Source: Mobula birostris (lineage: Eukaryota). Taken from it: DNA of 64,000 nucleotides. Of the stretch, positions 4,765 to 63,925 are shown in pieces (the stretch's first letter is position 1; the number at the start of each line of letters is the position of its first letter). The notes under the pieces are model-generated. The model ran no database searches. It was not told the origin of the DNA and worked only from the letters and a program-made list of their open reading frames with translations. The stretch is from NCBI RefSeq assembly GCF_030028105.1, contig NC_092371.1:156374490-156438489 (forward strand), in the 5' to 3' direction. The translations under genes and the position numbers were made by a program.

Positions 4765-7006
<2,242 letters not shown>

Positions 7007-11688: not shown

Positions 11689-11907
11689 ACATAAAAGTTG
11701 CTGGTGAACACAGCAGGCCAGACAGCATCTCTAGGAAGAGGTGCAGTCGACGTTTCAGGCCGAGACCCTTCTGATGTCCTGACGAAGGGTCTCAGCCTGA
11801 AACGCCGACTGCACCTCTTCCTAGAGATGCTGCCTGGCCTGCTGCGTTCACCAGCAACTTTTATGTGTGTTGCTTGAATTTCCAGCACCTGCAGAATTCC
11901 TGTTGTT
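11689..11907 (+). mobile_element. Penelope-derived hairpin mini-element
   Basis: About 80-bp inverted arms. TSD tacttaccct(c/t)tt at 11676-11688 and 11908-11920. Hammerhead-like core at 11776-11811 with a mutated cleavage triplet (GCC). Confidence 0.88.
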
Positions 11908-13217
11908 TACTTACCCTTTTCAGTTTTGTCTGCCCTTCACTTCGGGAGAGGATCACAATCACAATTCCTTATCCAGTTACTGGGAACCTACGGAAGTGCA
12001 ACCCCCACCACTGGACTCCATGAGGAGACAACACTGGAGTACCATCAGGAAACCCCAGCAAATGGCTGTGTTGAGGTTCCAGAGCTAAACCATTGTGCAA
12101 TATTCCCAAACTTCCGCAGAGTCACAGACATAAACAGCACCAGTCAGGCAAGGAACTGCAGGCATGTCTGCAGACTGCTCCCCACAGTATCCCCATAATC
12201 CATAGACAGGTAATATAAAGGAATGCTATACATGTTCAAATTGTTGAAGAACACATTATTACATCTACATGTCTTGTGAAAAAAAGTTAACATAAACCAT
12301 TCACTATAATTGGTAACATTTTCGATCAGAACTTTTCCCACCACGTAGTCTCTTGCCTGGGGAAAAGCCTGCTCAAATGTGTGGTGGCCAGTAACCTACA
12401 AGGAGGCAGCCTTAATCCTGAACCTTATTCTCTGGAGATGGGAGTGAACAATGTGGGATCAGACCCATTCAGGGCCTAGGGTTAAGGACCAACACAGGAT
12501 ATGGTCATGAAATAATGCATGATGGGGTCAAGGAACTACCTGGGCTTGGAGTCCCACCCTTCTGTACTGTCCTGGTCTTCCTGTTTGCATTGGGTTGGGT
12601 ACACAGTTTAAGGCTCATTGTTCGACCCACAAGAAACCGCAAAGTATAAGCCAGACCTGAATTACTGAACTTTGTGTTTTCCTTGAGCTAAGACAGGGTT
12701 GTGCTTGAAAAGAGTTATCAGCCCCTGGTGTGTTCAGTCATCTTTAATGTGTTCTCTTTATCATTTCAACTTCATTCATGTAATCTGTGATAAACTACAC
12801 CAACAAGAAACCAGCACTTGCAACCCTATCTGTCTAACCCACTACCTGTTTCAGAGAACCAGCGAACTTCTGCTGGCAACTTAAGTTGGTAATAGTTAAT
12901 GAATTCATATCACATTCCTTCCCTCCATTTTAGGGATGATACTATTACAATTAATGGGGATAAGTATAGATAACACTCTGGAACAGGGGAAATGTTATCA
13001 GAAATTTAAAAAAGGTTTACAATTTACTTGGTTGCTTCTTTCCTTCTGAGTCCTCTACCAACTTGGACAGAGCTTGCATTGAAATTTAACTTCCATGATA
13101 TGAGACAACATATCCGCTACAAACAAATAAGTCAACCAAACCAACTCGACGGAAGTGCATCACGCGGACATAACCAAAATACATTTTTCAGTGTTGTTCC
13201 GATGCAGACCTACTAAC

Positions 13218-13846
13218 CTCTAAAGAACTCATGGACACTGTTGAACCTGTTTCACTCCTTGATAATGCAGTATTACTTTCATCAAGTTCTGAAACAATGA
13301 AGTTCTTTACAGCGGACCGCGGTTCATATGGTAAACTCTGTTTGTGTTCTTGTGTGGTGAGATGCTGATCTAAATTGAAACTGATGTGATCCATCACAGG
13401 TGCACTTGTATTAAAATGCATTAACCTATCATGTGGCATGCCTTCCATGCTGATGTTTAATTTGCTTTCATCTTTAGCGATAGGTTGGACACTTGCTGAG
13501 CCTCTTGGCATTACAATGTAGTCACTCTCCATCATCCTCTCCTGGGCCTGAGCCAACTCAGCGTCCCCAGCTCTGAGATTGTCATCAGTGCATAAATAAA
13601 CTGTCCGCCGTAGTTCACTGTTTTCCTTCTTTATACACTGCTCAGTCAATTCGTTCATTCCAATTGGCACATGCATCGTCGGCGGCTGCTGTATCAAAAC
13701 TTTGGAAATCATATTTCCTGGGAGGGTTGAAAAATTCATGCTTTTGGGGTTGATTCCTTTCTCTTCTTCATCGTCATTCAGCGAGATCCTCGATAGCGTT
13801 CCTGTAATAGTTGCAGCTCGGCAGCTCCCTATATCCTTGTGAAGGA
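13218..13846 (-). CDS. ADGRB3: ADGRB3 large cytoplasmic-tail exon ([30 protein letters not shown]...[13 protein letters not shown]...[14 protein letters not shown]...[15 protein letters not shown])
   Basis: 629 nt (2 nt + 209 codons). Acceptor tctttgacccacag|TC, donor GAG|gttagt. ORF 13188..13739 carries the BAI3-type motifs [20 protein letters not shown] and [14 protein letters not shown]. Confidence 0.97.
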
Positions 13847-14504
13847 CTGTGGGTCAAAGAATCATTCGTTAGAATTGAAAATTCAACAGCTGATAAATTA
13901 TTCTAATTGACCTTGTGCTTTGGTCAAATAAATTAACCATTCTGTCACACTGTGTTTCATTTTCTTTCACCAAGTCAATTTGGTATTTTTCTTCATTGAA
14001 GGCAATATGTCAACATAATGATTGTTAATACTTTATTGCAATCTCATAATTAGAATGTAACTGTGCCGTTTATGTGGCTTGTTTTTGCGATTATAACATA
14101 GGAAAATGGGGTTTGATAGCTGGGAAAAAAAATCAGATCTACCTCGTGGTCACATTAATCGATGATGTTTGATATAACGTTTGAGGTAAATTAAGATGGA
14201 CCATATTTATTCAAAGTACTGTACCACTCTCCAGCAATAATCCTTCAACAGTCAGTAGTTAAGAAAACAAGTAACACAGAACAGATTGACAAAACAAGAA
14301 ACTGAACAGGTGTTGTAGGCTGAATGTAAAAGGCAAGTGAAGTTCGTAGACTGGTACTACCACATCATGCCTTGCATCTCTGTAAAATACTTCTACAAGC
14401 TTTATTATTCAATTTTGATTAAAATTAAACTGTGCAGTTGTATTGCATTGGTACAGGTCCATACCAACCATACTAATTCCATAAAGTGAAGGCAGGAAAG
14501 ACTG

Positions 14505-23860: not shown

Positions 23861-24167
23861 GATTGTTAACAGTTTTTGGTGACACCATTCGACTTGTATT
23901 TGGAGAGTCTGCTTTATTTTCAATCTTTGCTTTAATTTACAGAAAGCATCTTAAACAGGTTCATTGGATCTTTGCAAATAGACTATTTCCAATGTCCCTT
24001 TAATGTGGTAAATTGCACACTGGAGGAAGTGCTCTTTGCAAATTTGAAGTAATACAAGCCTACAGAATGGAAACAACAGGAATTCTGCAGATGCTGGAAA
24101 TTCAAGCAACACACATCATACTTGCTGGTGAACGCAGCAGGCCAGGCAGCATCTCTAGGAAGAGGTA

Positions 24168-24205
24168 CAGTCGACGTTTCAGGCCGAGACCCTTCGTCAG
24201 GACTA
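24168..24205 (-). ncRNA. Minimal type I hammerhead ribozyme motif, sense to the ADGRB3 pre-mRNA
   Basis: UAGUC-CUGACGA-AGG-GUCUCGG-CCU-GAAA-CG-UC/GACUG: conserved CUGANGA and GAAA boxes, stem I UAGUC:GACUG, stem II AGG:CCU, palindromic ACGU in place of stem III. Confidence 0.75.
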
Positions 24206-24519
24206 ACTGAAGGAAGAGTTAGTAAGAGATTTGAAAGTGGGAGGGGGAGGGGGAGATCTGAAATGATAGGAGAAGACAGGAAGGGGAGGGATGGAGCCAA
24301 GAGCTGGACAGGTGATTGGCAAAAGGGATACGAGAGGATCATGGGACAGGAGGTCCGGGAAGAAAGACAAGGGGAAGGGGAACCCAGAGGATGGGCAAGG
24401 CCTTGCCAATCACCTGTCCAGCTCTTGGCTCCATCACTCCCGCTCCTGTCTTCTCCTATCATTTTGGATCTCCCCCTCCCCCTCCCACTTTCAAATCTCT
24501 TACTAACTCTTCCTTCAGT

Positions 24520-24557
24520 TAGTCCTGACGAAGGGTCTCGGCCTGAAACGTCGACTG
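24520..24557 (+). ncRNA. Minimal type I hammerhead ribozyme motif (inverted copy)
   Basis: tagtcctgacgaagggtctcggcctgaaacgtcgactg, identical to the minus-strand copy. Confidence 0.75.
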
Positions 24558-26394
24558 TACCTCTTCCTAGAGATGCTACAGAATGGAACATTGCACGAGA
24601 TTCCAAGGGCTGTGCCTCTGAAGCATCTGAAGGATGGGTGGCAGGTGGGTAGATACCATCGTACGTAAAGAATAGAGAATCTTTTTCAAACTTGAACTAA
24701 GGGATTTTCACAAACACACTTGAAAGAAGAGGTGGGATCTCAATTGAAAGATGTACACCTAACACTACAATAGTACACGTGTGTGTTAGTGTGAGCTTTG
24801 TGTTCAAGTCTCAGTACACACATGAATGAGAGGACGAAAGTCTCACGATATACCTAATCAGCATCCTTGAACATTAACGGAGCCACATTTAAACTTTAAA
24901 GCATCATTGATTGTCAACAAGATGTGATCTGTTTCTATATCAAGTTTAAGTAGTGGTCCTTAATAAAGGTAAATAAATAAGAAGTAGTTTTACGGATAGA
25001 GCCAGAAGGAACAACAACAGAATGTAAATGCAGTGCTTCTGATCATGTCCTACTCACCCTCATAAACCAAATGCCATAGCTGCAGTGCAGACTACAAGAT
25101 TTCCTCTAAAGTCCGATCACTGTGACTGATGCAAGGTGCAGAATTGTTAATTGTTCCCCCTGAACCTAGCAAAGTTAAAGGTAGGCTGGTAAGCTCTGCT
25201 CCTAAAACTGTTCTCAATTACCTCCAACCAGAACATGCACAGGTGACCCGGCTTCCATGCACATCCCAAAGATGTGAAGATCTGTATGTTAACTAGTCCC
25301 TAGTGCAGGAATAATAGAATTTGGGGGAAGGGGGATAATGAAAATGAACAGAAAATTAAAAAAAAACTGAGAATAAAAAATTGGTTTAATTTAAATGGAT
25401 GATGGTCAGCACAGACTCAATGGGCTGAAGGGCCATTTTTTAATGACATATATCTCTATGACTCAATGAGTCTTGTTTGGAATTAGTGTATCCCCGGCAA
25501 CAGCCAGTGCCAATGTGTTTTCTCCAATAGAGTGGGAATTGCTATTGTTTTTGATGCAGGCGAGCTTCAACTTGTGACTTAAGCTCTTGCCCATTAAAAC
25601 CTAGTTTGCAGCCCTCCTCTGTATGGTCCCTCTGAGATGAAAAAATGAGGTATCAATGTCAACAGATTATCTGAAGAGCTAAGCTGCCCTCTTTTCTTTC
25701 AAGGTGAAGAATAAAGTTCTGAAGTTCCATCAGACTGATACCAATAATCCAAACTCTGGGAACAAAGATCCAAATTAATAACAAAATGAATGTTTCAAAG
25801 TCCTGAAAACCACACAGCTCAACCCATCTGTCAGCTCTGACTGCCTACTGGAGAAGAACGGAAAAGCTGGATCTGATATCTAAAATTTTGGTATAGAAAA
25901 AAGCATAGAGGTATAAAAGCATAGTTGTCAAAAAGGAAACGAATAACAGGGGGCCTGACAGTGGGGCAGTGGGGGAGTGGCGCGAGGGTGGTGGTCACAT
26001 GCAGCACATTTATCCCAAGACATACTTGCATATATCCCCTCCAGCCTGTAATGATTCTTTGTCCTGTGGGAGGTGTAGAATGGGCTACAGAACATTTGTT
26101 CAAATTAATACTGTCACAGGAGCTTCGTCCTTCAGAGTTAAGTAATGGTGCAGCTGTTTCATAGAAATAAGGTTCAGCACCCTGGAGTGCTAAAGCTCAG
26201 TAGCGCGAATGGGCACCTCCTCCTTGTGGATGGCTGAATAGAAAAAAAAAGGAACTAAAGGGATCAGGTAGCTGCAGTGGTTCCAATATTCTGAACTGAG
26301 AATCCCAGAGTGCAACTTCACATCTCATTCTTGTAAATAGTAATGAGCAATGGGTTAGCAATCTGTATCATTAGGAAAAAAAAATACTGTTCAG

Positions 26395-31730: not shown

Positions 31731-32844
31731 TGTTTTCAATTAAAATAGCAGACAGGAGAGTTCCAAACCAGAGAAAATCATGAAATAATATACAGGAAAA
31801 TACCTCTTCAGTTCATTATGCCTGCTTCTGCTAATTGAGGATAACCATTAATCCTCCTTCCCTGTTCTTTTCCAACACCTTCTGCTAATTTTCCATCTAA
31901 TATTCCAATCCCCTTCTGAAAGTTCCTATTGACAGTAACGAGACAACAAGACGACAGGAAACAAAAAAAAAGCACTAAATCCACAAACCAAACAGAACTC
32001 AAGATCACCTGTGTTTGGATACTTAGGCATCATTTTAGTATGGCCAGTTCTACATAAGCTCTTGATCTGGGATGGTCGATGATGCTGTTCAAGATGATCT
32101 TTGGTTTGACATATCCAAAATAAAAGAAATAATACTGTCATCAATACCAAATGATTTCATCCAAGCAACCCTCCTACCCTCCAATAAGTAAAACAGCCAT
32201 TTAAAAAGAGTCCAAACTCTTGAGGAAATGGAAAGAGATGGATTAAATCTATCAAAACCTTCTTAAATCGTCATGAACAACTTTGTTAAGGAAAGTGCTC
32301 TCCACAGCTGTTAGTTGAGGTCCCTGATGTGAATTAACAGCATCAGAGATGCAAATACATGTTTGAACTAGGTTCAGGACTAAGAGGATGTTGTGATTAA
32401 AAGTTCTGCAGCTGGAGTTTTCAACATCTGTAGATTTCTGATTTAATCATTCAGATAAATTTATTTAAATACAGCTTGGCAAAAGCACAATGCAATTCAT
32501 TTATTCATACCTTTTCTCAAAGCTAACTCCTTAGGATTCAGTATTCTCTGAATCACATTTGGATAATGTCAACAGTTTCAAAACAAAGACCAAAAGGAAA
32601 TAAGAAGCCCTATATGGTAGTGCTGGACCTGCTTTGAGAATTAAAAATGTATTCTGGGCTTTAGAGTTTGTTCTTCTGAGGGGGAAGCTGAGGCACATTG
32701 GAACGGAGGAAACCTTACTGACAGTACACCTGAGAGGGAAGATATGTGCTCTTATTCCGACAGATCCTTCCCTTAGACAAATCAGCTTACCTCCTCAGGA
32801 AGAATGCAAATATCAAATGCAAAGCACCCACAGACGCTCACAAA

Positions 32845-42457: not shown

Positions 42458-42497
42458 CTGACCGACATGCTATGTCCACATCCTTTTCAAAGTCTGT
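42458..42497 (-). CDS. ADGRB3: ADGRB3 40-nt exon (TDFEKDVDIACRS + first base of the V codon)
   Basis: Not in the ORF track; read directly as ctctaaacag|ACAGACTTTGAAAAGGATGTGGACATAGCATGTCGGTCAG|gtaaga. Phase 0-1 links the two flanking exons in frame. The peptide is identical to recalled BAI3. Confidence 0.95.
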
Positions 42498-51497: not shown

Positions 51498-51593
51498 CAT
51501 AATCCGAGCATGACCATTTGGGAAAGTGCCAGCCGTATCCCCAGCTATTGGATCTTGGCAGTTCCTCAGCCGACATCTAACGGCATCTTGAAC
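51498..51593 (-). CDS. ADGRB3: ADGRB3/BAI3 coding exon just after TM7 ([32 protein letters not shown])
   Basis: 96 nt, phase 0-0. Acceptor ...gctgaacag|GTT, donor ATG|gttagt. The peptide matches recalled vertebrate BAI3 [32 protein letters not shown]. Confidence 0.95.
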
Positions 51594-51778
51594 CTGTTCA
51601 GCAGAAAAGCAGCTGTAAGTTGATGAGTAAGCAGTAATGAACACTGAGCATGCTGGAAGTTCAGTAAGGTTATTCTGTACTATAATTGATTTACATTCAA
51701 TGTAACAGACATAATAATGTTTAAGTTAGACTTGCACCGATATGTCATTTTATTGACAGTGCAAGAAACGAGAAAAAA

Positions 51779-55436: not shown

Positions 55437-57597
55437 TGCAAACATGAGGAAATCTGCAGACTTCTATGTGTGTTGGTGGAAAGTAACACTCACAACACGC
55501 TGGAAGAACTCAGCAGGTCGGGCAGCATCCGTGGAAACGATCAGTCAACATTTTTGGCCGGAACCCTTCGTCAGGACTGTAGAGGGAAGGGGCAGAGGCC
55601 CTATAAAGACGGTGGGGGGAGAGTGGGAAGGAGAAGGCTGGTAGGTTCCAGGTGAAAAACCAGTAAGGGGAAAGATAAAGTGGGGGGGGGAAGGGGAAGC
55701 AGGGAGGTGATAGGCAGGAAAGGTGAAGAAGGAATAGGGGAAAACACAATGGGTAGAAGGAGGCGGAACCATGAGGGAGGTGATAGGCAGCTGGGGGAGG
55801 GGGCAGAGTGACATAGGGATAGAGGAAGGGAGGGGTGGGAATTACCAGAAGCTGGAGAATTCTATGTTCATACCATAGAAGACTACCTAGATGGTATATG
55901 AGGTGTTGCTCCTCCAACCTGAGTTTAGCCTCATCATGGCAGTAGAGGAGGCCATGTATGGACATATCTGAATGGGAGTGGGAAGCAGAGTTGAAGTGGG
56001 TGGCTACCGGGTGATCCTGTCTGTTTTGGCGGACGGAGCGGAGGTGCTCGACGAAGCGGTCCCCCAATCTGCGTCGGGTTTCACCGATGTAGAGGAGGCC
56101 GCACCGGGAGCACCGGATACAATAGATGCCCCAACAGACTCACAAGTGATGTGTTGCCTCACTCTGAAGGACTGCTTGGGACCCTGAATGGTGACAAGAG
56201 AGGAGGTGTAGGGACAGGTGTAGCACTTGCACTTACAGGGATAAGTGCCGGGCGGGAGATCCATGGGGAGGGACGTGTGAATCAGGGAGTCGTGGAGGGA
56301 CCGATCCCTGCGGAAAGCGGAGGGGGTGGAGAGGGAAGGATGTGCTTAGTGGTGGGGTCCTGTTGAAGGTAGCGGAAGTTGTGGAGGATAATGTGCTGGA
56401 TCCGGAGGCTGGTGGGGTGGTAGGTGAGGACAAGGGGAACTCCGTCCCTGTTGTGGTGGCGGGACGATGGGGTGAGGGCTGAAGTGCGGAAAATGGAGGA
56501 GATGCAGGTGAGGGCATCATTGATGACAGCAGAAGGGAAACCACGATCCTTAAAGAAAGAGGACATTTGCGATATCCTGGAATGGAAAACCTCATCCTCG
56601 GAGCAGATGCAGCGGAGACGGAGGAACTGGGAATAGGGAATGGCATTTTTGCATGTGGCGGGGTGGGAAGAGGTATAGTTGAGGTAGTTATGAGAGTCAG
56701 TGGGCTTGTAGAAGATGTCAGTGGACAGCCTGTCTCCAGAAATGGAGACAAAGAGGTCGAGAAAGGGGAGAGAAGTGTCTGAGATAGACCAAGTGAATTT
56801 GAGGGCTGGGTGGAAGTTAGAAGTAAAGTCGATGAAATTGACGAGCTCAGCATGGGTGCGGGAAGCAGCACCAATGTAGTCGTCAATCTACCGAAGGAAA
56901 AGTTCGGGAGCAGTACCAGAATAGGTTTGGAGCATAGACTGCTCCACATAATCAACGAAGAGGCAGGCATAGCTAGGGCCCATGCGAGTTCCCATAGCTA
57001 CACCCTTAGTCTGAAGAAAGTGGGAAGAGCCAAAAGAGAAGTTATTGAGTGTGAGAACCAGTTCCGCCAACCGGAGGAGGGTAGTGGTGGTGGGGAACTG
57101 GTGAGGTCTATTATCCAGAAAGCAGCGGAGGGCTTTGAGGCCTTCTTGATGGGGAATGGAGGTGTATAGGGATTGGACATCCATAGTGAAAATGAAGCGG
57201 TTGGGACTGGGGAACTGAAAGTTATTGAAGAGGTGGAGAGCATGGGATGTATCCCGGATGTAGGTGGGGAGGGACTGAACTAAGGGTGACAAAATGGAGT
57301 CCAGGTAGGCAGATACAAGTTCGGTGGGGCAGGAGCAGGCAGAAACTATGGGTCTACCGGGACAGTCAGGCTTGTGGATCTTGGGAGGAGGTAAAACCAA
57401 GCGTACGGCGTGTGGGAATTATGAGTTTAGCAGCTGAGGATGGAAGGTCTCCCAAGTTGATAAGGGCGGTGATGGTACGGGAGACAATGGTTTGATGTTT
57501 TTTGATGGGGTCCTGTTCCAGGGGTAAGTAAGAGGAGGTGTCAGAGAGCTGCCGTTTGGCCTCAGTGAGATAGAGGTCCGTCCGCCAGACTACTACA
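55437..57597 (-). mobile_element. 5'-truncated Penelope-like retrotransposon (RT + GIY-YIG endonuclease), frameshifted
   Basis: PKIHKPDCPGRPIVS...FTMDVQSLYTSIPH...QTKGVAMGTRMGPSYACLF (PLE RT) and GDRFVEHLRS...PVATHFN...RLEEQHLIYHLG (GIY-YIG). 3' UTR carries ctgacgaagggttccggccaaaaatgttgac, a hammerhead with GAAA mutated. Confidence 0.93.
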
Positions 57598-58592
57598 AGT
57601 ACTATCTCCTCTGCAGGGGAATCAAAATTTTGTGCTATACTGGCGGGGGGGGGGGGGAGAGGGGGTTGTGGTGATTACAGTTTATGAATAGTCACCAATT
57701 TAAAAAAAGAGTTGGGATATTTTTCTTTCTCTGAATAACCTATGGACAATGGATCCTGAAGAGGTGGGGCAAGCAGAGCTTTTGAGTATTTTTAAGGCAG
57801 GGATAGATAGATCCCTGATAAACAAGGTGACAAGATGCTACCAGGATAGGTAAGAATGCAGAGCTGAAGTTATTAGCTATTAGCTTGTTACATGGTGGAG
57901 CAGACTTGAAGGGTCAAATATCCTACTCTTGTTTCAAATTTGTATGTTTATATACATTCCTTACAATCTGAATTCTTGCTCAGTGAATTTCCAATGAAAT
58001 GTTAAACTGAGTTTCAGCTCAGATACAGATGAAAGATCCCATGGGGTTATTTCAAAACTGTCAAGGTGATGTCCTGACTAAGAAGACCAGACAGAGATTG
58101 TTGCTTGATAAATCCATGTGGATAATGTACTCTTGCAATTTGGTGATGTACTTTCTAGGTAACAACAGTAAATATACAGTACTGATTGTGAAGTCATTTG
58201 ATTTGTCCAAGGAGTCCATCAGAACTGTGTTTCTGATGGTTTGAGAGTTGTGTTTTGCATTTCAGATCCTGGTTATCCATATTATTACACCATAGAAAGC
58301 ATTCGATCTGGATGTAGAACAGCTTGGTATGGCAACTGCCCTGCATTTGATCACAAGAAACTGCAGAGAGTTGTGGATGCAGCTCAGCACCTCACAATTC
58401 AGCTTTCCCTCCGTGACTCTGTGTGTAAGTCTCACAGCTTCAGCAAAGCAAGCAGCATAATCAAGATCCCACCCGCCTCACACTTTCTCCCTTCTCCTTC
58501 CTCCCACTGGGCAGAAAGATACAAAAGCCATCTATCAGAATGCTGCATATGCAGTGCCTCCAGCTTTGTCAAAGACCCCTCCCAACCTTTCC

Positions 58593-62700: not shown

Positions 62701-63925
62701 AAATGCCTTACTGAAACCCATATACACTACATCCGCAAACACAAGGAATCTGCAGATGCTGGAAATTCAAGCAACACACATCAAAGTTGCTGGTGAACGC
62801 AGCAGGCCAGGCAGCATCTCTAGGAAGAGGTACAGTCTTCCTAAGATGCTGCCTGGACTGCTGCGTTCCCCAGCAACCTTGATGTGTGTTGCTTACACTA
62901 TATCCACTGCTCTACCTTCACCGATGTGTTTAGTTACATCCTCAAAGAATTCAATCAGACTTGTAAGGCACGACCTGCCCTTGACAAAACCATGCTGACT
63001 ATCCTTAATCAGATTATGTCTCTCCAAATGCTCATAAACCTGCCTCTCAACATCTTCTCCAACAACTTGTCCACTACTGAAGTAAGACTCACTCGTCTAT
63101 AATTTCCTGGGTTACCTCTACTCCCTTTCTTGAACAAGGGAACAACGTGTGCAACCTTTCAATCCACTGGTATTTCTCCCATCCCTATTGATGATGCGAA
63201 GATCATCACCAGAGGCTCAGCAATCTCCTCCCTCGCCTTGCACAGTAGCTTGGGGTATATCTTGACCGGTCTCGGCAACTTATCTAACCTAATACCTTTC
63301 ATAAGCTCCAGCACATTCTCTTTCTTAACGTCTATACACTCAAGTGTTTCAGTCCACTGTAAGTCATCCCCACAGTTGCCAAGATCCTTTTCACTGGTGA
63401 ATACCGACGCAAACCATTCATTAAGTACCTCCGCTGCCCCCTCCGACTCCATACACGTTTCCATTCTCGCTCCTGATTGGTCCTATTGTCACACAGCTCA
63501 TCCTCTTGCTTTTCACATACTTGTAAAATGCCTTAGTGTTTTCCTTAATCCTGCTCACCAAGGCCTTCTCCTGGCCTTCTAGCTCTCCTAATTTCATTCT
63601 TGAGCTCCTTCCTGGCACCCTTGTAATTTTCTAGAGCTCTAGCAATATCTAGTTTCTTGCACCTTCCGTAAGCTTTTATTTTCTTCTTAACTAGATTTTC
63701 CACAACCTTTATACACCAAGGTTCTTTTACCCTTCCATCCTTCCCCTGCCTCAATGGAACATACCTATGCAGAACACCATGTAAATGATCCCCGAACATT
63801 TGCCATATTTCTGCCATGCATTTCCCTGAGAACATCTGCTCCCAATTTAGATTCCCAAGTTCCTGCCTAATAGCATCATATTCCCCCTACCCTAATAAAT
63901 GTTTTCCCAAATTGTCTGCTCCTAT
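59782..63925 (-). mobile_element. Stack of nested minus-strand CR1 LINEs (tail 59782-59936; inner copy about 59937-61870; outer body about 61875-63925)
   Basis: Two CR1 tails (tagaaca..., tagacactagaat) and two sets of ORF2 motifs (WRMANVVPLFKKG...PGNYRPVSLT at 61114-61428; REEIAEPLVMIF at 63159-63464; two LVRPHxEY motifs). Confidence 0.88.
62737..62893 (-). mobile_element. Penelope-derived hairpin inserted into CR1
   Basis: About 55-bp inverted arms; TSD tacacta(c/t)atcc(g/a)c at 62723-62736 and 62894-62907. Confidence 0.87.

Follow-up and report, generated by a model that had tools for sequence, protein, structure and literature searches.

How did an intron come to hold a palindrome with a hammerhead ribozyme motif on each strand, and is the pairing of its two arms a design that silences the ribozyme? 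We addressed this question at a locus of Mobula birostris, within a window of 64,000 nucleotides (the whole stretch of DNA that was analysed). The open reading frame at 13191-13853 on the minus strand has as its best match a Mobula birostris protein named ADGRB3, at 99% identity, and the ADGRB3 coding span is G000:C3:156,348,871-157,162,309. With the ray ADGRB3 model P0002 as query, tblastn gave further minus-strand exon matches at 42459-42497 and 51498-51611, beyond the nearest upstream match listed below. The insertion lies 10.2 kb from the downstream exon match and ~7.4 kb from the upstream one along the gene; because exon matches flank it on both sides it is intronic, in agreement with the original prediction. 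No Pfam family was found for the large ADGRB3 exon, and searches of the Atlas and the PDB with the host exons yielded nothing of use. The 31-aa match at 32010-32102 (−), present in P0002 and absent from the rodent protein P0036, may, judging from the two proteins, be an alternative exon of the cytoplasmic tail that is specific to a lineage. The features of the locus are as follows (TSD, target-site duplication; PLE, Penelope-like element).

13146-13850, minus strand: downstream exon match of ADGRB3 (bounds from tblastn; splice sites approximate)
24060-24072, no strand: left TSD, 13 bp, single copy at the run X11 empty site
24073-24147, minus strand: PLE 3′ tail of 75 nt, in the long copy only; its terminus is the family's usual full-length 3′ end
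24148-24322, minus strand: paired segment of the long copy, complementary to the short copy (pLTR / 3′ UTR)
24168-24205, minus strand: minimal type I hammerhead motif in sense orientation to the ADGRB3 pre-mRNA, with cleavage predicted at 24173/24172
24323-24400, minus strand: unpaired 5′ extension of the long copy, forming the hairpin loop; ordinary family sequence
24394-24407, no strand: junction of the two head-to-head copies, palindromic without mismatch over 14 bp about 24400/24401 and present once in the genome
24403-24577, plus strand: short inverted copy, without the last 75 nt; 2 nt common with the right TSD
24520-24557, plus strand: the other minimal hammerhead motif, in antisense orientation to the gene, with cleavage predicted at 24552/24553
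24576-24588, no strand: right TSD, 13 bp
32010-32102, minus strand: nearest upstream ADGRB3 exon match (tblastn of P0002; P0036 without match)

The insertion is 503 bp long and contains no ORF. Near-perfect inverted arms of 175 bp had been claimed, and this proved accurate: 24148-24322 and 24403-24577 are 175 nt each, spaced by 80 nt and complementary at 170/175 positions. The five mismatches divide the pairing into runs of 111, 21, 5 and 33 bp, and the outer 111 bp, containing the hammerhead motif, are mismatch-free. The description of the whole as a TSD-flanked palindrome stood for the inverted arms and the TSD, and fell for its symmetry: the left copy, whose sense strand is the minus strand (24073-24400, 328 nt), has both the 75-nt tail at 24073-24147 and a 78-nt inner extension, neither of which occurs in the right copy. 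At each arm difference one arm has the family's commonest letter (three changes private to the long arm and two to the short, against 181 other copies), and comparison with the 181 family copies revealed no compensatory change at these five positions. The differences fit independent decay of ~1.5% per arm. Private letters common to both arms were considered as a sign of one template RNA; there were none at the 175 positions relative to the 181 copies, and this comparison was uninformative.

The two TSD copies (24060-24072 and 24576-24588) are identical at 13/13 positions, with a chance probability of ~7e-6 when each copy is allowed to lie up to 10 nt from an end. In a contig from another organism (run X11), the left flank leads through one 13-mer directly into the right flank with the element absent. 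This empty site shows that the TSD is real, and the perfect 13-bp duplication originally reported was thereby confirmed. The left flank of run X11 agrees with window positions 24030-24059 at 29/30 letters, and over ~340 bases of its right flank 20 differences from the window are listed (29 by the piece table). In runs X5 and X6, which come from one sample of a second organism with a flank ~99% alike, the element is joined to the TSD by 26 letters, where the bar was 31, in the pattern also shown by run X1, which may come from the window's source; the outer junction of the short arm is present in contigs of two organisms at this length, counted on the element side. From these contigs, the insertion is likely common to two close species and younger than their split from a third, the run X11 organism. 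The locus had been called one recent insertion event. A single event it is; "recent" applies only in a relative sense, given the five arm differences and the right junction in the second organism. Conservation of the intronic hammerhead at the orthologous site across lineages was not found, the site in run X11 being empty. A resemblance of the target to the element's tail (8/9 letters) was rejected as chance, since 126/1,500 random 13-mers scored the same. At 24608/24609, 20 bp to the right of the TSD, the window lacks ~286 bases that runs X5, X6 and X11 contain, a lineage-specific deletion adjoining the palindrome.

The predicted PLE origin was borne out by longer natural copies, which reach upstream into a reverse transcriptase (RT), a CX4CxxC linker and a GIY-YIG domain. 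At least 40 other copies are 95-97% identical to the 328-nt copy over 24073-24400 (40 of 857 candidates scored), and among 30 relatives retrieved many continue upstream. The ORFs of three of eight longer stretches (L031-L033) encode, as frameshifted pieces, a single-ORF RT with a C-terminal GIY-YIG domain. By eye, without an alignment, these copies contain a CxxC between GIY and YIG plus later His residues, and the CX4CxxC linker precedes GIY-YIG. Pfam searches of six ORF pieces from other copies detected GIY-YIG in two and RVT_1 in one, with one match at the cut-off (GIY-YIG, 22.9 bits against 22.6) and RVT_1 below it (E 5e-4); 4/6 pieces had no match at the cut-off level, or none whatever. 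PMC8557442 defines EN+ PLEs by two Cys between GIY and YIG (CCHH) and places a CX2-5CxxC linker in Neptune and Nematis, and the copies agree on both counts. Judged from these motifs, the family is a C-terminal EN+ PLE, and the linker, shared by both clades and lacking in Penelope/Poseidon, makes it Neptune- or Nematis-like. The other hallmarks of EN+ PLEs, namely 5′ truncation, inverted pLTR, one-sided tail and variable TSD, were all found at the sampled loci. Elsewhere in the window, at 55470-57674 (−), lies an older, frameshifted related PLE with RT and GIY-YIG pieces (both domains by Pfam) and a decayed core.

A search of the whole genome with an exact 33-place core pattern returned 35,940 hits (17,721 + 18,219), with 0 for the control. 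With some 36,000 copies bearing the hammerhead, this PLE is very common, and the locus is an ordinary remnant of it. The earlier remark that these were the only two intact cores found was right within the window, where the third core, at 11779, has GCC in place of GUC, and does not hold beyond it. We sampled 64 loci by position, around the first 67 of 100 listed cores and all at the start of contig C1, and classified them by automated chaining: 36 were solo copies and 21 head-to-head units; of the rest, 6 had other complex arrangements and 1 was tandem. Among the 21 head-to-head units, 13 have the core covered by an inverted arm and 15 are flanked by TSD-like repeats of 10-18 bp. Exactly one full-length end was found in every one of these 21 units (P ~4e-7 under independent ends) and in 50/51 units over all loci, a set that includes copies chosen for their full end. 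Over the 824 kb of the ADGRB3 region we counted 12 head-to-head units, three of them in the window; besides the focal one these are shorter units of the same family at 11689-11906, with the core that reads GCC for GUC, and at 62744-62894, without a core. In the loci L115-L178, 5′ ends crowd just upstream of the hammerhead (18/64 at most 20 nt from the core start; next bins 5, 2 and 1), and this pile-up, in a sample for which an intact core was a requirement, may reflect where transcripts start or where RT stops.

The 3′ ends fall into two groups: 67 of 145 are full length, 69 are short by 24-46 nt and 9 are shorter still. These two groups agree with the PLE tail of 30-40 bp and with the pair of RT start sites described in PMC11167929, according to which the PLE protein cuts and extends both strands and two internal start sites define the tail. 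In the same source, Anolis Poseidon PAc resembles the ray family in having two preferred 3′ ends ~30-40 nt apart downstream of the hammerhead, and in copies that retain sequence beyond the cut site, which uncut RNA would be expected to leave. The inverted-pLTR EN+ PLEs described in PMC8557442 and, for Adineta Pen2a, PMC3846280 likewise show a head-to-head 5′-truncated copy, a tail at one end, a TSD of ~8-15 bp and a junction palindrome. PMC8557442 reports an inverted 5′-truncated copy with a 30-40-bp tail that is often at one end only, and PMC3846280 the same inverted arrangement with TSDs of 8-10 bp. The focal insertion differs from them in having no ORF within its 503 bp and a tail offset of 75 nt rather than 30-40.

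Taken together, the locus is very probably a 503-bp dead-end EN+ PLE insertion, in which two 5′-truncated copies of the element's 3′ end stand head to head, likely through copying of RNA on both target strands, with predicted locking of the ribozyme as a likely by-product. In this mechanism the GIY-YIG nuclease would cut both target strands with a 13-nt stagger, and each 3′ end would prime cDNA on element RNA from a different start point. One cDNA would begin at the full 3′ end; the second would start 75 nt inward of it, where 2 nt are microhomologous to the target. Both would end early and be joined head to head at 24400/24401. The step from two-strand priming to joining is, for the focal locus itself, probable rather than secure. 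Two observations count against it here. The end of the short arm is rare, with only 2/145 3′ ends at 70-80 nt short where the usual offset is ~33 nt, and the 14-bp junction palindrome is the longest among 51 junctions, the next being 10 bp.

Both observations would be accommodated if the first cDNA had folded back or primed itself at the junction and been copied back, slipping ~78 nt between two similar internal repeats and being joined to the target 75 nt short. PMC3846280 ascribes junction palindromes to such self-priming, and similar internal motifs do occur where both arms stop. Two junction letters also differ from the family's, and the family's second start site is not where the short arm ends. 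Against this, palindromes longer than 10 bp are absent from 50/51 junctions, rare family variants supply both junction letters (loose ends at 24401, runs X5 and X7), and solo copies too end at the short site, which argues that this is a true start site. We therefore regard fold-back as a possible but rather unlikely origin of the focal copy. That the palindrome is itself a non-autonomous element, MITE- or retrozyme-like, moving as a unit, is exceedingly unlikely. One pair gives it some encouragement: L149:3199-4103 and L158:3963-4864 (G000:C1, ~391 kb apart) share an internal junction and both end points and are identical at 853/906 positions, with unrelated flanks and their own TSDs. They are the only two full-junction matches above 90% among 40 scored, and may reflect either ectopic conversion or a re-mobilised composite. 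The focal junction, however, occurs once in 4.0 Gb with one mismatch allowed, which largely refutes this reading, and junction positions vary freely among the 51 units. Moreover, the left inverted repeat is not terminal, having the 75-nt unpaired tail outside it, unlike that of a MITE, and tandem hammerhead units are absent. Non-LTR retrozymes (bioRxiv 10.64898/2026.07.22.740005) are also short, non-coding, PLE-derived and equipped with a type I hammerhead, but are built of units repeated in tandem and in direct orientation, each with its own motif; the focal motifs lie on opposite strands and can form no cis dimer. At least two tandem direct units with hammerheads, which define a retrozyme, are lacking at the locus and were seen at 1/64 sampled loci. 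A mirror duplication made by the assembly is hardly credible. Inverted PLE structures are noted in PMC8557442 to trouble assemblies, and none of the contig pieces listed spans the central junction (there being 3,826 further pieces); against an artefact stand the five arm differences in both directions, the agreement of the 13-bp TSD with the empty site and the short arm's outer junction in contigs from two organisms (26 letters, element side).

We then considered the ribozyme. The same 38-nt motif lies on both strands, at 24520-24557 (+) and 24168-24205 (−), and the predicted cut sites, 24552/24553 (+) and 24173/24172 (−), had been placed correctly. Its features are those of a minimal type I hammerhead (min-HHR): core boxes, stem I, stem II, an extra base before stem II and a palindromic loop 3 in place of stem III, the last as originally noted and present on both strands. 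The best stem II has 4 bp, an unpaired A and a CUCG loop. Among 18 Rfam matches at E up to 1 none was to a hammerhead model; all were to generic hairpins (miRNA) and below the gathering score, and a motif without stem III may fall outside the Rfam hammerhead models. PMC4209133 defines min-HHRs, and the metazoan PLE examples there share type I topology, a 5-bp stem I, an unpaired base before stem II and a palindromic 15.2-16.2 for stem III. It also describes dual motifs on opposite strands 100-700 bp apart, and the focal motifs, on opposite strands, are 314 nt apart. In Schistosoma min-HHRs stem II has 7-8 bp, unlike the 4 bp here; the focal pair 10.1-11.1 is G-U (G-C in 27/140 family copies), and the activity of the focal motif is putative. 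Stem II variants that turn a wobble into a Watson-Crick pair were not counted as covariation, since both occur at CpG-type positions. Intronic type I motifs are also known as conserved hammerheads in amniotes, such as RECK (PMC6155905), from which the focal one differs in being absent at a relative's empty site, lying in a TSD-flanked repeat and being one of tens of thousands.

Folding predictions depended strongly on context. For the isolated 38-mer, stems I and II are predicted to form with a probability of 0.55-0.98; for a lone arm with its own flank the values fall to <0.01 for stem I and <0.1 for stem II, and for the whole insertion both are 0.000 on either strand. The arm-arm duplex over the motif is predicted at −80 kcal/mol. 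The claim that the motif can be locked in a hairpin was thus supported, as a prediction, for both strands. Since the copies point outward, any transcript would read the antisense arm first, so that the hairpin would form and keep the ribozyme from folding. The ribozyme would be nearly inactive even alone, so ADGRB3 is likely unaffected and the copy would decay neutrally. According to PMC4209133, single motifs do not cleave and dimers do so at a low level; PMC11167929 reports an anole PLE hammerhead that cleaves only with the element's protein and is dispensable for insertion in vitro. Shielding of the motif from arm mismatches was dismissed, the chance that 3-5 events miss its 38 nt being 0.29-0.48. 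On the gene strand, pyrimidine-AG acceptor-like sites occur in the long arm at 24155 and 24203, predicted to be buried in the hairpin.

Whether this locking was selected is a separate matter. The original prediction saw a self-neutralising design, under which an active intronic ribozyme is tolerated only through its locking antisense arm. The predicted completeness of locking, with the −80 kcal/mol duplex, and transcription of the antisense arm before the motif speak for such a design. The rest of the gene argues otherwise. Among 14 motifs with complete stem I in the ADGRB3 region, 8 are sense and 6 antisense (8/14, P 0.79; in this one gene a modest bias is possible), and family matches of at least 88% number 15 sense and 18 antisense. 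An opposite copy within 3 kb accompanies 4/8 sense and 3/6 antisense motifs, leaving four sense and three antisense intact motifs without one. The nearest opposite copies of the unpartnered sense motifs lie 4.9-9.8 kb off and resemble the reference at 70-77%; the gene offers a small sample, and weak pairing with distant copies of 70-80% likeness could occur. In the positional sample, 33/36 solo copies keep an intact motif, and motifs with complete stem I on both strands occur at just 4/64 loci. The inactivity of monomers, as published in PMC4209133 and PMC11167929, and the predicted misfolding of the lone arm further remove the need for a lock. In Xenopus introns tandem retrozymes are reported to be depleted (bioRxiv 10.64898/2026.07.22.740005), a finding that concerns active tandem forms. 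We thus set the claim of design aside as very unlikely, and consider locking, on the folding model, to be likely a by-product of geometry.

Head-to-head insertions with one-sided tails and paired opposite-strand min-HHRs are already published kinds, as the cited papers describe, and the focal locus is a new copy. Among the papers found on shark PLE hammerheads, none dealt, by title or abstract start, with elasmobranch PLEs; the supplements of the cited papers may contain matching chondrichthyan families. A single locus matters little among ~36,000 hammerhead copies and the 12 head-to-head units of ADGRB3. The whole family is a useful natural data set on PLE integration, with two start sites, one per end, the integration cycle being described as still undefined in PMC8557442. 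In rays the family may also supply intronic dsRNA in bulk. ADAR could plausibly act on an intronic duplex of 111 perfect base pairs, the arms containing 56 and 29 A on the pre-mRNA strand, and the ADAR/Dicer role suggested at the outset is likewise plausible. It is conceivable, and in our view quite doubtful, that head-to-head PLE stubs are the ray counterpart of inverted Alus, supplying most ADAR/Dicer substrate and small-RNA self-silencing, with ends that record two-strand priming by a dimeric enzyme; if so, introns would hold thousands of ready-made long hairpins, zipped in transcripts of either strand, 12 of them in ADGRB3. Elsewhere in the window, a short inverted repeat at 52556-52622 matches miRNA models below threshold, and fragments of a transposase lie at 5500-6850, which from their translations we take to be Tc1-like.
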